From Verrucomicrobiota bacterium (lineage in GTDB: Bacteria; Verrucomicrobiota; Verrucomicrobiia; Limisphaerales; AAA164-E04): a stretch of 64,000 nt of DNA. The DNA lies in assembly GCA_047947115.1 (NCBI GenBank), contig CP170459.1, positions 2,304,001-2,368,000 on the forward strand, read 5' to 3'. This document shows positions 31,552 through 34,956 of this stretch, one piece after another. Below the pieces are notes generated by a model. That model was not told where the DNA came from. It saw nothing but the letters and a program-made list of their open reading frames with translations, and did not search any database. The position numbers and the translations under genes were made by a program. Every line of letters starts with the position of its first letter. Within the stretch, counting starts at the first letter, position 1.

Positions 31552-31938
31552 ATGAGAATACACAGCATTTCACAACCCAAAAACAAAGGCGTCGCGTTCC
31601 TGTATTTCGTGGTGTTCCTGGCAACGTTCTGCATCGTTGCGTTCCTGATTTGGGCGACCAAACAATACACCCAACCGCCATCCATTTCAGCCAATCGCGC
31701 CAAGGAACGGGCCGAGAATTTGAAATCGGTGCAGGAAGCTGTTGGCCCTGTGTTGAACGAATACGGCTGGCAGGACAAAGAAAAGGGATTTGTGCGTGTC
31801 CCAATCGAGCGAGCCATGGAACTCACGGTCAAGGAATGGAGTAACCCAAGTGAAGGGCGCGCAGAAATGATCGAGCGTGTGAAAGAAGCCACCTTCGTGC
31901 CGCCTCCGCCACCCGAAGAACCCAGTGCATTTGAATAA
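31552..31938 (+). CDS. actG: Single-TM small subunit, ActG-like
   Basis: One TM helix and a YGWQDKEKGFVRVPIERAM motif, directly after actF. Confidence 0.65.
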   Translation: MRIHSISQPKNKGVAFLYFVVFLATFCIVAFLIWATKQYTQPPSISANRAKERAENLKSVQEAVGPVLNEYGWQDKEKGFVRVPIERAMELTVKEWSNPSEGRAEMIERVKEATFVPPPPPEEPSAFE

Positions 31939-31982
31939 ACCTAAACAGGGTTAATAGACTTATTGTTGAATCATTGAACGCC

Positions 31983-33440
31983 ATGGACGCGAATCAATCA
32001 TTAAAATCACCTTCGGACTGGTCGGATATCGACCGTTCATATCGGTTTCCTACGCTTTTTCTGGCGAGCAAAGCAGTCGGTTGGCTGTTGCTTGGAAGCA
32101 TTTTTTCACTGATCGCATCCATCAAGATGCATTCACCTTCCTTCCTGGCAAGTTGCCCTTGGGTGACTTACGGCACCATGATACCGGCGGCGCTTAACGC
32201 AGTCGTTTATGGATTTGCCCTGCAGGCATCTTTTGCGGCATTGCTTTGGATGACCATGCGGATGGGCCAGGTGAAACTGGTCGCGCCGGGTTATCTCTTC
32301 ATCGGAGGTGCTCTCTGGAATATCGGGGTGCTGGTGGGGGTCGTTGGCATCATGGCCGGTGGTTCTACCGGAATGGCCTACCTCGAAATGCCCGGTTACG
32401 CGCAGCCCATGTTGTTCGCCGCGTATACAATCATCGGAGGCATTGCGCTGGTGACGCTTCATAAACGCCAGGTGCGCGTTTTATATCCCTCACAATGGTT
32501 CATTTTTGCGGCTTTGTTCTGGTTCCCATGGATTTTCAGTGCAGCCAGTTTCCTTTTGGTGGTATCCCCCGTTCGTGGCGTCACTCAATTGGTGATTGAC
32601 GGTTGGTACGTATCCGGTTTGAACATCGTCGTATTGGGTTTTGTTGGGATAGCTCTCCTTCAATATCTCATTCCAAAACTAGCCAGACGGGATCTGTACA
32701 ATGGGTACCTTTCCATGTTTGCTTTCTGGATGCTGCTGATTTTCGGAAGTTTTTCGGGCATCCTTCCAGGCCAAACGCTTCCCGCCTGGGTCTCTGCCCT
32801 GAGCAGTGTATGCAGTGTGTTTGTAGCATTTGCCTGGATTGTTCTCACGTATAACCTTTATCGCACCATTGAGGGTGGGGGCGCCAAATCCGATGCTCTG
32901 GGCATCAGGTTTCTTTATTTTTCTCTGGCTTCAGGTTTGCTTGTGGCACTACTGACCGCTTGGGCTTCTCGTGAAACCATCGCGCAGGTCGTTCAGTTCA
33001 CTTTGTTCCTGCCCGGATTGAAATGGCTGCAACTTTACGGATTCGTTGGAGCTGGTTTACTGGCTGCCATTTACTTGTTTCTCCCAAAAATCTCCGGCAC
33101 CGAATGGTCAAGTACCGGACGTTGGACCGCCACTTTCTGGTCTTATGCAGTGGGCGTCTTCCTGGTCTCGATCGCCTTTTTGTTCGGAGGCTGGAAACAC
33201 GGCAAGGGTCTGACTAACCCGGACATGCCCTTCATGGATGTTCTCCGTGGAGGCATCGCTCCCTTTATCCGCATGAGCACCGTGGGTGAACTCCTCGTAA
33301 CCATTGCGGCATTGCTGGTTGTCTGGAATGTTTCCTGTCTCTTTTGGGGAACTTATTCCAGTTGCCTGCTCAATTGCTGTGGTATCGCAGGGCAAGGAGC
33401 CGGCAGTGGAAAATCTCAACCCAAGAAAGGTTCGAAATAA
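31983..33440 (+). CDS. cbb3-type oxidase subunit I (CcoN)-like membrane protein lacking the heme/CuB histidines
   Basis: CcoN-like landmarks (W.TYG, LNAVVYGF, YLEMP, LYPSQW, YLIPK, LPAW) and about 12 TM helices, but only 3 His, none at ligand positions. Confidence 0.8.
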   Translation: MDANQSLKSPSDWSDIDRSYRFPTLFLASKAVGWLLLGSIFSLIASIKMHSPSFLASCPWVTYGTMIPAALNAVVYGFALQASFAALLWMTMRMGQVKLVAPGYLFIGGALWNIGVLVGVVGIMAGGSTGMAYLEMPGYAQPMLFAAYTIIGGIALVTLHKRQVRVLYPSQWFIFAALFWFPWIFSAASFLLVVSPVRGVTQLVIDGWYVSGLNIVVLGFVGIALLQYLIPKLARRDLYNGYLSMFAFWMLLIFGSFSGILPGQTLPAWVSALSSVCSVFVAFAWIVLTYNLYRTIEGGGAKSDALGIRFLYFSLASGLLVALLTAWASRETIAQVVQFTLFLPGLKWLQLYGFVGAGLLAAIYLFLPKISGTEWSSTGRWTATFWSYAVGVFLVSIAFLFGGWKHGKGLTNPDMPFMDVLRGGIAPFIRMSTVGELLVTIAALLVVWNVSCLFWGTYSSCLLNCCGIAGQGAGSGKSQPKKGSK

Positions 33441-33442
33441 TC

Positions 33443-34333
33443 ATGAATCAGGGCCCAACTTTATTCTTAGGCGTACTTTGCGCCATGGCTGTTTCCTGGA
33501 TCGGCTTCGTCATGTTGCCTCAGGTCCAACTCGGCAGTCAGTCCACCCGTGTCGTCAAGGAACTTGGACGTCATTATCCGTCCCCACGCGGCGGTTTGGC
33601 TGATCGTGGCAAGGACGTTTACCGCGCCGCCGGATGTGCCTCCTGTCACACCCAGCAAATTCGTCAGACCGGTTTCGAGTTCGACATCGTCCTGACAGAT
33701 GCTGGCGACTTTACCAACTCCGTTATTGGACTGGTGCAGCAGGCTAATCGGTCCTTGAATGAAAAAGAAGCCACTGACCTGGTCGCCAAAACGCCCATCA
33801 CGATTCGTGAAGGGGTGAAAAAGGACATAGCGGATCATATCCTCAAGCTTTTCAAGGACAGTGGCGCCAAAGTCGCGGCCAACATTCGTCCAATGGGCCC
33901 CGATATCGAACGTGGCTGGGGACCTCGCCAAACAGTTGGTTTGGATTACTTGTACGATCAACCACTCCTTCTCGGCAACCAGCGTATTGGACCAGATCTG
34001 GCCAATGTCGGCTCACGCCTGACGGACCGTCAGTGGCACCTGCTGCACCTTTATCATCCACATACGGTGGCGGCTGGTTCGATCATGCCAGCCTACCCCT
34101 ATCTTTTCGAAACAAGAAAGATCGACGGTCAGCCCTCAGCGGATGCTCTTCCTCTGGAAGGTGATTTCGCTCCCGGAGAAGGGATGGAAGTGGTGCCAAA
34201 ACCAGAAGCCCACTCTCTGGTAGATTACCTGTTGAGCCTTCGAATCGAAAATCCGGTATTCGAAGCTCCCTACTTATTTACACAAGCTGAAAGCAGCGAA
34301 GACAACAATTCCGAAACGGAGCAGGCCCAATGA
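33443..34333 (+). CDS. CcoO-like monoheme cytochrome c with an inserted L7/L12-CTD-like domain
   Basis: TM helix, GKDVY..GCASCHTQQIR, LLGNQRIGPDLANVG, WHLLHLYHP, SIMPAYPYLF; about 70-aa insertion after QQIR. Confidence 0.85.
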   Translation: MNQGPTLFLGVLCAMAVSWIGFVMLPQVQLGSQSTRVVKELGRHYPSPRGGLADRGKDVYRAAGCASCHTQQIRQTGFEFDIVLTDAGDFTNSVIGLVQQANRSLNEKEATDLVAKTPITIREGVKKDIADHILKLFKDSGAKVAANIRPMGPDIERGWGPRQTVGLDYLYDQPLLLGNQRIGPDLANVGSRLTDRQWHLLHLYHPHTVAAGSIMPAYPYLFETRKIDGQPSADALPLEGDFAPGEGMEVVPKPEAHSLVDYLLSLRIENPVFEAPYLFTQAESSEDNNSETEQAQ

Positions 34334-34956
34334 GCGCAAAATCCAAGAAGAACACGCCCAAGAAAAAGCACGCTGAAGACCGTGAACCAGATTTTCACAA
34401 CGCGCCTGTCCCAGTAATTCTTTTTGTCATAGCCATATTGCTGGCTTACTGGGGGATGAACTACCTCAACACCAACGCCGGTGGATTCAACCGCTACGTC
34501 TACGGACCCTACAGTTCCTATGAAATTGTGGCTGATGTTCAACCCGGGAGTGGAGATGATCCAATTAAACGTGGTGCTGATATTTACAGGAACATCTGTA
34601 GTCCATGTCACCAAGTATCCGGTATGGGAGCACCGGGACAGTTTCCTCCGTTGGCCGGTTCTGATTGGGTCAATACGGACGGTCCGAATCGTATATTGCG
34701 AATTATCCTCAATGGCCTCAATGGACCGTTGGAAGTCAATGGCCAAAACTGGAACGGCGCCATGCCAGCTTTTGGCGATGTGATTGCATCCGATGCCGAC
34801 TTGGCAGCTGTCGTCTCCTATATCCGAAACAGCTGGGGTAACGAAGGTAGTATATCTACCCCGGAAGAAGCCGCTGCCGTTCGAGCAGAATCAGGCGACC
34901 GCGGTCGCTCATGGTCCGCAGCAGAACTGCTCGCGCTGCCCGTTGAAGTTCAGTAA
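34330..34956 (+). CDS. Membrane-anchored monoheme class I cytochrome c
   Basis: TM helix, CSPCH, FPPLAGS, axial Met in GAMPAF, YIRNSWGN. Confidence 0.88.
   Translation: MSAKSKKNTPKKKHAEDREPDFHNAPVPVILFVIAILLAYWGMNYLNTNAGGFNRYVYGPYSSYEIVADVQPGSGDDPIKRGADIYRNICSPCHQVSGMGAPGQFPPLAGSDWVNTDGPNRILRIILNGLNGPLEVNGQNWNGAMPAFGDVIASDADLAAVVSYIRNSWGNEGSISTPEEAAAVRAESGDRGRSWSAAELLALPVEVQ

Follow-up and report, generated by a model that had tools for sequence, protein, structure and literature searches.

A conserved CcoN-like protein without heme and copper ligands in the alternative complex III operon of Verrucomicrobiota

Why should an operon keep subunit I of a terminal oxidase after all of its heme and copper ligands are gone? 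The question is raised by the open reading frame (ORF) at 31974-33440 in a 64,000-nucleotide stretch of Verrucomicrobiota DNA from contig CP170459.1 (this whole stretch is the window, and plain positions refer to it). Its product is a homologue of CcoN, subunit I of cbb3-type oxidases. Four genes, for an ActG-like protein, the CcoN-like protein, a CcoO homologue and a cytochrome c, stand directly behind actA-F (23648-31517) of alternative complex III (ACIII) with no break. We find that the ORF is conserved and is not a cbb3 oxidase. Its product probably serves as a scaffold for the two cytochromes.

A CcoN fold without its ligands

The 488-residue protein matches Pfam COX1 (6.4e-26) and, by sequence, Pseudomonas stutzeri CcoN (3MK7_A, 2.9e-14), while its 62.5 bits against TIGR00780 ccoN are far under the cut-off of 583. 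Its AlphaFold model (pLDDT 93) superposes on 3MK7_A with a TM-score of 0.84 and a root-mean-square deviation (rmsd) of 2.4 Å. The ORF thus has the subunit I fold of the heme-copper oxidases (HCOs) and CcoN homology. Its likely start is ATG 31983 (Met4), which is kept in 97% of the aligned ligand-less copies.

None of the ligands is left. The low-spin heme b pair is absent (H60 to A73 at 32190, H347 to W351 at 33024), as is the heme b3 His (H345 to L349 at 33018). The CuB trio is replaced by S214 (H207, at 32613) and by L264 and P265 (H257 and H258, at 32763-32768, with a 2-residue gap in the alignment), and the cross-linked helix VII Tyr251 by G258 (32745). Only three His residues remain in the protein (53, 163 and 409), none at a ligand site, and H163 and H409 are not conserved among the ligand-less copies. 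Of the presumed C-family proton-channel positions (those of 3MK7), S247 alone is kept here, and G222, Q230, A250 and G321 occupy the others. The FeB ligand set of the nitric oxide (NO) reductases is likewise missing, the six sites being without conserved His or acid.

HCO chemistry rests on the active-site ligands (PMC11214002; papers given by PMC number are cited here and below from the available part of their text). Because all ligand His and the Tyr are replaced, it is near certain, as judged from the sequence, that the protein can reduce neither O2 nor NO. A preliminary description had come to the same view on O2. It had placed an intact CcoN-like ORF behind actF and actG in the same operon, on which the coordinates, the COX1 and 3MK7 matches and the superposition agree. 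Its count of three His and its four motif replacements (RPLHTN to IPAALN, WYGHN to WYVSG, GPHH to GILP and GHVH to GLKW) are all correct in the alignment to 3MK7_A.

Ligand states, origin and selection in the family

In Verrucomicrobiota the module runs actABCDEFG-ccoN-ccoO-cytochrome c. By their labels the relatives belong to Verrucomicrobiota, chiefly to Limisphaerales/Pedosphaerales and Opitutales. Orthologues occur in most of 40 near relatives, a search in which two genomes (G007 and G030) gave none, and in 57/250 genomes across the phylum (E<=1e-20). The gene for the CcoN-like subunit, here N, has actF and/or actG directly upstream in 117/119 long loci (not deduplicated); in the remaining two, one of which lies at a contig end, N is intact. 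One further intact ccoN-ccoO-cytochrome c locus, L140, has ccoS and ccoI and no act genes within 10 kb upstream. Seven records (L076, L102, L107, L121, L127, L070 and L125) are titled Akkermansia muciniphila, Bifidobacteriaceae, Haliangiales or Methylomirabilota, with operons nested among Limisphaerales; they are probably mislabelled or misbinned metagenome-assembled genomes.

The ligand state is bimodal. All six His are present in 37 of 151 distinct locus-derived proteins, and the other 114 have 0–3, although ligand-less queries were used and the ratio is therefore no census. Zero, one, two and three His are kept in 77, 32, 4 and 1 proteins, respectively, and none keeps four or five. Degenerate copies are thus common in the relatives, as had been supposed. 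Among 142 full-length top representatives of a profile search, one keeps four His and four keep six. The four-His protein, P0130, is an apparent intermediate: two of its CuB His and the Tyr are gone, while the heme b pair, the heme b3 His and the third CuB His remain.

The cross-linked Tyr and the heme b3 His are kept in 0/120 ligand-less rows of the alignment and are invariant in intact copies. Substitutes at the six ligand sites differ freely from lineage to lineage, with no conserved replacement ligand. At the presumed proton-channel and propionate positions, in our own canonical numbering, the ligand-less rows keep T216 in 12%, Y224 in 26%, S241 in 12%, Y318 in 31%, R58 in 21% and R438 in 5%. 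What they conserve lies mainly in the N-terminal half, at Trp, Gly and Pro positions and in periplasmic loops including E138. Conservation is 0.44–0.51 in the N-terminal half versus 0.28–0.41 around the former active site.

The cofactor-insertion gene ccoS (PMC12648545) is lost along with the ligands. It lies within 900 nt upstream of 35/37 intact copies and 0/114 ligand-less ones, by a locus profile built from 12 hits of a genome-wide search. Genome-wide, it is present in 11/12 intact versus 0/19 ligand-less genomes, counting those judged to be without a canonical cbb3. The only ccoS of the present genome belongs to its canonical cbb3 and not to the ACIII-linked module. A ccoI-like gene adjoins intact modules only, barring one that belongs to a neighboring canonical cbb3.

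By tree, the catalytic ACIII-linked subfamily, and not canonical CcoN, is the source of the ligand-less copies. In an ActC+F+D tree of 104 loci (FastTree) the ligand state changes at least 11 times. Ligand-less loci are nested among intact ones at high support: L199 and L200 in family f23, L128 and L149 beside L143, L167 beside L156, and L177 beside L110 and L118. An N tree (IQ-TREE) places them in three groups, with 3 changes of state, and one common origin can be rejected (approximately unbiased test, p=0.004). Its 29 rows were picked after a first FastTree, the ligand columns were removed and the longest branch, L174, was excluded. That first FastTree had grouped most ligand-less rows, probably by long-branch attraction, and IQ-TREE split them into three. 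Since regain of seven residues is implausible, we read 3 to about 11 losses, of which gene transfer could lower the upper figure.

The gene is nonetheless under purifying selection, and the constraint on it is clear though a little relaxed. In comparison with a relative of 90% identity, its dN/dS (NG86, as throughout) is 0.046, with 0.022–0.050 for the other operon genes. Ligand-less pairs give 0.07–0.26 in 16/18 cases (two saturated), similar to actF and ccoO, and intact pairs 0.04–0.15 in 4/6, the rest being saturated. None of the listed matches has an internal stop, and the full length is held across sequences only 30–40% identical.

As to transcription, 20/23 listed RNA runs hold at least 40% of the sampled words, and contigs of four runs cover the operon, two ending at 34955 and 34978 and one extending to 35310. 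These contigs come without a DNA control and are therefore modest evidence, and low RNA cover downstream of 35442 is not counted.

The preliminary description had named three outcomes as fatal to it, namely no CcoN homology, His residues at equivalent positions and neutral decay, and each is contradicted by the alignment, the fold and dN/dS. What it missed are the intact orthologues in the same operon, the recurrent loss, the co-loss of ccoS and a ribosomal L7/L12 domain in CcoO.

Partner cytochromes and the role of the module

The two partners keep their hemes. Here, the CcoO homologue and the third cytochrome each have one CxxCH and an axial Met, so the retention of two heme-c partners noted by the preliminary description is borne out. 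By alignment columns, CcoO beside a ligand-less N has CxxCH in 104/106 and the axial Met in 100/106, and the third cytochrome has both in 74/74. An N-terminal His/Arg/Glu motif of the third cytochrome is common to the intact copies and gone beside ligand-less N. Among PDB entries, the third cytochrome is closest to a Cu nitrite reductase, in the heme-c domain of that enzyme (1.5e-22), and to cytochrome c552 (2.4e-16).

In two ligand-less lineages the ActG-like protein is fused to a c552-like cytochrome c (L163:8108-8965 and L172:8060-8971, both minus strand). In four 50%-identity clusters (P0145, P0211, P0231 and P0235, seen at the protein level only) the ligand-less CcoN is fused to a heme-bearing CcoO. 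Both kinds of fusion would fit physical coupling. In its periplasmic heme domain, the CcoO here also carries an insert of about 70 residues directly after CxxCH, which by Foldseek is an L7/L12 C-terminal domain (TMt 0.95, rmsd 0.8 Å) and is 40% identical to that of Escherichia coli. Many ligand-less Limisphaerales rows, and 0/35 intact rows, have an insert of about this length; it is confined to this one order, so its tie to the ligand loss may be mere descent.

Where could the electrons go? No catalytic ccoN was found within the ACIII operon, as had been noted, and the genome search located the enzymes elsewhere. There are three COX1-family genes: the CcoN-like one, an intact A-type coxA at C1:2875659 and an intact fused ccoNO with ccoI, ccoS and ccoP at C1:3534714. 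The A-type subunit II has CuA and no CxxCH. With no heme c of its own, it therefore needs an outside cytochrome.

The A-type oxidase also accompanies the ligand-less state in relatives. We searched 80 genomes, 46 with a ligand-less copy, 32 with an intact one and 2 with none found. A match of A-type level is present in 45/46 ligand-less versus 25/32 intact genomes, the lone ligand-less exception being an assembly of 710 contigs with 89% completeness. Intact N is present in each of the 7 genomes that lack an A-type enzyme, and in 3 of these it is the only HCO found. A CuA subunit II lies beside the A-type gene in 15/16 ligand-less genomes checked; 13 of these 15 subunits carry their own heme c and two do not. 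In L163, L166, L171, L174 and L212 the cox genes directly follow the ligand-less module. A-type proteins of 650–680 residues were considered as bo3 quinol oxidases and rejected, CuA subunits II being present.

We consider it reasonably probable that the CcoN-fold protein is a cofactor-free scaffold that anchors on ACIII two c-type cytochromes, which would relay electrons from ActE to CuA of an A-type oxidase encoded elsewhere. It would be made without cofactors and would still bind CcoO and the third cytochrome. The path would run from quinol through ActC/B/A and ActE to CcoO and the anchored c552-like heme and on to CuA, so that the ActA–ActE heme wire would be extended by two cytochromes on an empty scaffold. 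Historically, oxygen chemistry may have disappeared from an obligate ACIII–cbb3 unit wherever the electrons could go to an A-type oxidase instead; the shell could not be deleted, presumably because the heme-c subunits depend on it. The preliminary description had offered such a scaffold as one of its options, and it is the best reading still, the routing step being what we infer.

Several points weigh against this relay. Other small c-type cytochromes are present in the genome and other electron routes exist. A Rieske protein and a cytochrome b fused to two CxxCH are encoded at G000:C1:5497431-5499874 (+), and this pair might form a bc-type complex in addition to ACIII. In genomes whose caa3 carries a heme c, ActE could donate to it directly, as it does in Rhodothermus marinus (PMC5928083), yet the module is kept. 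Without heme b, the CcoO heme has no obvious onward acceptor, and it may be kept only for folding. The third cytochrome, like ActE and CcoO, did not match any of about 16 heme domains from caa3 subunit II, and the miss of the third cytochrome counts here. The cox genes likewise follow the intact copies L156 and L161, and most intact-N genomes too have an A-type oxidase. The genome sample was drawn with ligand-less queries, and the genomes are related, so that the co-occurrence counts are not independent and are given without a p-value.

A bolder form is tentative and rather unlikely. In it a pure adaptor has arisen from an HCO repeatedly and independently: ACIII, the empty cbb3 shell with two hemes c and the A-type oxidase would make a three-part supercomplex, with the L7/L12 domain as a periplasmic docking module in many Limisphaerales.

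The most serious rival is unlikely, too. The empty CcoN and its cytochromes would be an entrenched structural part that serves only the assembly or stability of ACIII, with electrons leaving at ActE and the extra hemes as passengers or a redox buffer. Keeping the module even beside a heme-bearing caa3 agrees with it, as does the concentration of conservation in the N-terminal half, away from the former active site. The same outcome, reached repeatedly, suggests structural dependence. In none of the act operons read is N missing, but these loci were found through N, so operons that had lost it could not appear, and G007 and G030 gave no orthologue. The nearly invariant axial Met of both cytochromes, the gain of a cytochrome c by ActG in two lineages and the likeness of the third heme domain to donors of copper centers all speak against this rival.

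A new function as an ion or proton channel, a sensor or a binder of another cofactor through new ligands is improbable. The 12-helix fold persists together with the polar residues E138, R165, Q205, K235 and N294, and CcoO has gained its L7/L12 domain in many ligand-less Limisphaerales. However, every conserved polar residue of the ligand-less copies is found in intact ones as well and no new core motif appears, while the residues at the six sites drift. The presumed proton-channel and propionate positions went with the ligands in most rows, and the third subunit's N-terminal His/Glu motif was lost, too. The channel or sensor that the preliminary description had held out as an option is thus not borne out.

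An oxidase or NO reductase still active through migrated ligands is very improbable. Databases and three papers treat the protein as cbb3 and P0130 keeps four His, but the three His here lie off the ligand sites, two of them unconserved, with no Tyr or Glu substitute and no ccoS. A decaying pseudogene held only by operon position would explain the long branches and a dN/dS somewhat above the intact copies, but is hardly credible with dN/dS far below 1, full length without internal stops and RNA contigs over the gene.

Operon layout, known systems and implications

The operon is laid out in Table 1. Pfam and NCBIfam scans of the actF-like ORF gave no match, and its position between actE and actG is a conserved one. 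A profile of the actG-like family meets ActG of 8K9E at E 0.27, with a common motif YG..G.V.IPI.RAM. The terminator hairpin that the preliminary description had placed at 34972 is present; a promoter and terminator scan returned nothing above chance and did not list it.

Table 1. Coordinates of the operon features in the window
Feature	Position	Strand	Basis
actA, pentaheme cytochrome c of ACIII	23648..24316	+	Pfam Cytochrome_C7; 5 CxxCH
actB, Fe-S/molybdopterin-like subunit; possible start ATG 24313	24295..27681	+	profile matches
actC, NrfD-family quinol-oxidising membrane subunit	27681..29108	+	Pfam NrfD
actD	29108..29647	+	Pfam ActD 9e-65
actE, monoheme cytochrome c	29649..30263	+	profile match and heme motif
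actF-like membrane subunit	30270..31517	+	position
actG-like protein, single transmembrane helix, 128 aa	31552..31938	+	position; weak profile match to ActG of 8K9E
Ligand-less CcoN homologue, 12-helix HCO fold, 488 aa from TTG	31974..33440	+	
CcoO homologue, 296 aa; transmembrane anchor, CxxCH 33635-33649, axial Met215 (34085)	33443..34333	+	Pfam FixO 1.7e-25; 3MK7_B, 8SMR_F; conservation
Ribosomal L7/L12 C-terminal-domain insert within the CcoO heme domain	33680..33877	+	Pfam Ribosomal_L12 4.7e-10; Foldseek
Membrane-anchored monoheme cytochrome c, 208 aa, CcoP position, c552-like domain; CxxCH 34597-34611, Met145	34330..34956	+	
Perfect 14-bp hairpin, likely intrinsic terminator	34972..35003	+	sequence; fold -24.3 kcal/mol

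Upstream, nuoB-C-D-E-like genes occupy the minus strand (20028-23356) and are transcribed away from the act operon; tRNA-Cys (23282-23356) separates the two, tRNA-Gln lies at 19911, and the nuoB/act arrangement is seen again in close relatives. Downstream, at 36339-37761 (+), tRNA-SeC is followed by a 414-residue ORF that looks by eye like a tyrosine integrase, which suggests an island integrated at tRNA-SeC. A Ser/Thr kinase with propeller-like repeats lies beyond them at 40181-42202 (-).

The module resembles the C-family CcoNOP enzyme of P. stutzeri (3MK7) in its 12-helix fold, the order ccoN-ccoO-anchored cytochrome c, the CcoO heme with its Met and the periplasmic-loop Glu (E138). It differs in having no His ligands, no cross-linked Tyr and no ccoS, in its lost proton-channel positions, in a short c552-like monoheme protein as the third subunit and in the L7/L12 insert of CcoO. 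Its direct orthologue, in the same operon, is the ACIII-linked C-type oxidase of Opitutaceae and verrucomicrobial methanotrophs (PMC8498564, PMC6688271). The available text of these papers takes that oxidase as a working enzyme throughout, unlike the sampled majority here.

Like the ACIII–caa3 of R. marinus and the ACIII–aa3 of Flavobacterium johnsoniae, the locus links a complete actA-F to oxidase-derived genes, and its bound hemes c would point toward an A-type oxidase. In F. johnsoniae an extra ActA heme domain occurs where subunit II has none (PMC5928083). Unlike in these supercomplexes, the extra hemes here are those of a cbb3 that no longer functions, they would be attached to an inactive oxidase subunit, and the A-type genes are usually unlinked.

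The families gNOR, sNOR, eNOR, nNOR and NOD (PMC11214002) likewise have an HCO subunit I in which active-site residues are changed and the Tyr is missing. These swap at most one active-site His for a conserved ligand and stay enzymes, whereas ligand-less CcoN loses nearly all and has no conserved substitute. By the same source's available text, the active-site His are completely conserved across HCO families save one swap in gNOR.

Verrucomicrobial methanotrophs are said to have cbb3 by Kruse 2019 (PMC6688271), Schmitz 2021 (PMC8498564) and Schmitz 2023 (PMC10205796). The first two place it beside ACIII, Schmitz 2021 citing Refojo 2010, and Kruse 2019 ties it to the high oxygen affinity of these organisms. 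A 2026 Limisphaera paper lists cbb3 and, in its available text, is silent on ligands (PMC13608581). We found no prior description of a ligand-less ACIII-linked CcoN in the literature, although supplements or subscription papers could mention it.

The named cbb3 proteins of Methylacidiphilum kamchatkense Kam1 (WP_039721928.1), M. fumariolicum (CCG92522.1), M. sp. Yel and M. infernorum have one His of six and no Tyr. Three g43 genomes have two A-type, one or two B-type and one cNorB-like enzyme besides the ligand-less protein, and an intact C-family oxidase was not found in them. One of the three has a copy 94% identical to that of Kam1, so the group is taken as Methylacidiphilum. If the pure adaptor exists, Methylacidiphilum would have no cbb3 at all, and its high oxygen affinity would come from ba3 or aa3 enzymes.

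In summary, the ligand-less module is a variant of the ACIII–oxidase module, its dead state near certain and its relay role likely. The respiratory chain would have a pseudo-enzyme at its heart, from a large family in which nearly all active-site His have been lost on more than one occasion while the protein stayed conserved. The intact sister operons provide natural controls, and cultured strains of Methylacidiphilum and Opitutaceae open the question to direct test. Databases name the ligand-less proteins cbb3 subunit I, which affects ecological inference. Among Verrucomicrobiota from soil, fresh water and the sea, many that count as cbb3-positive may lack the enzyme.

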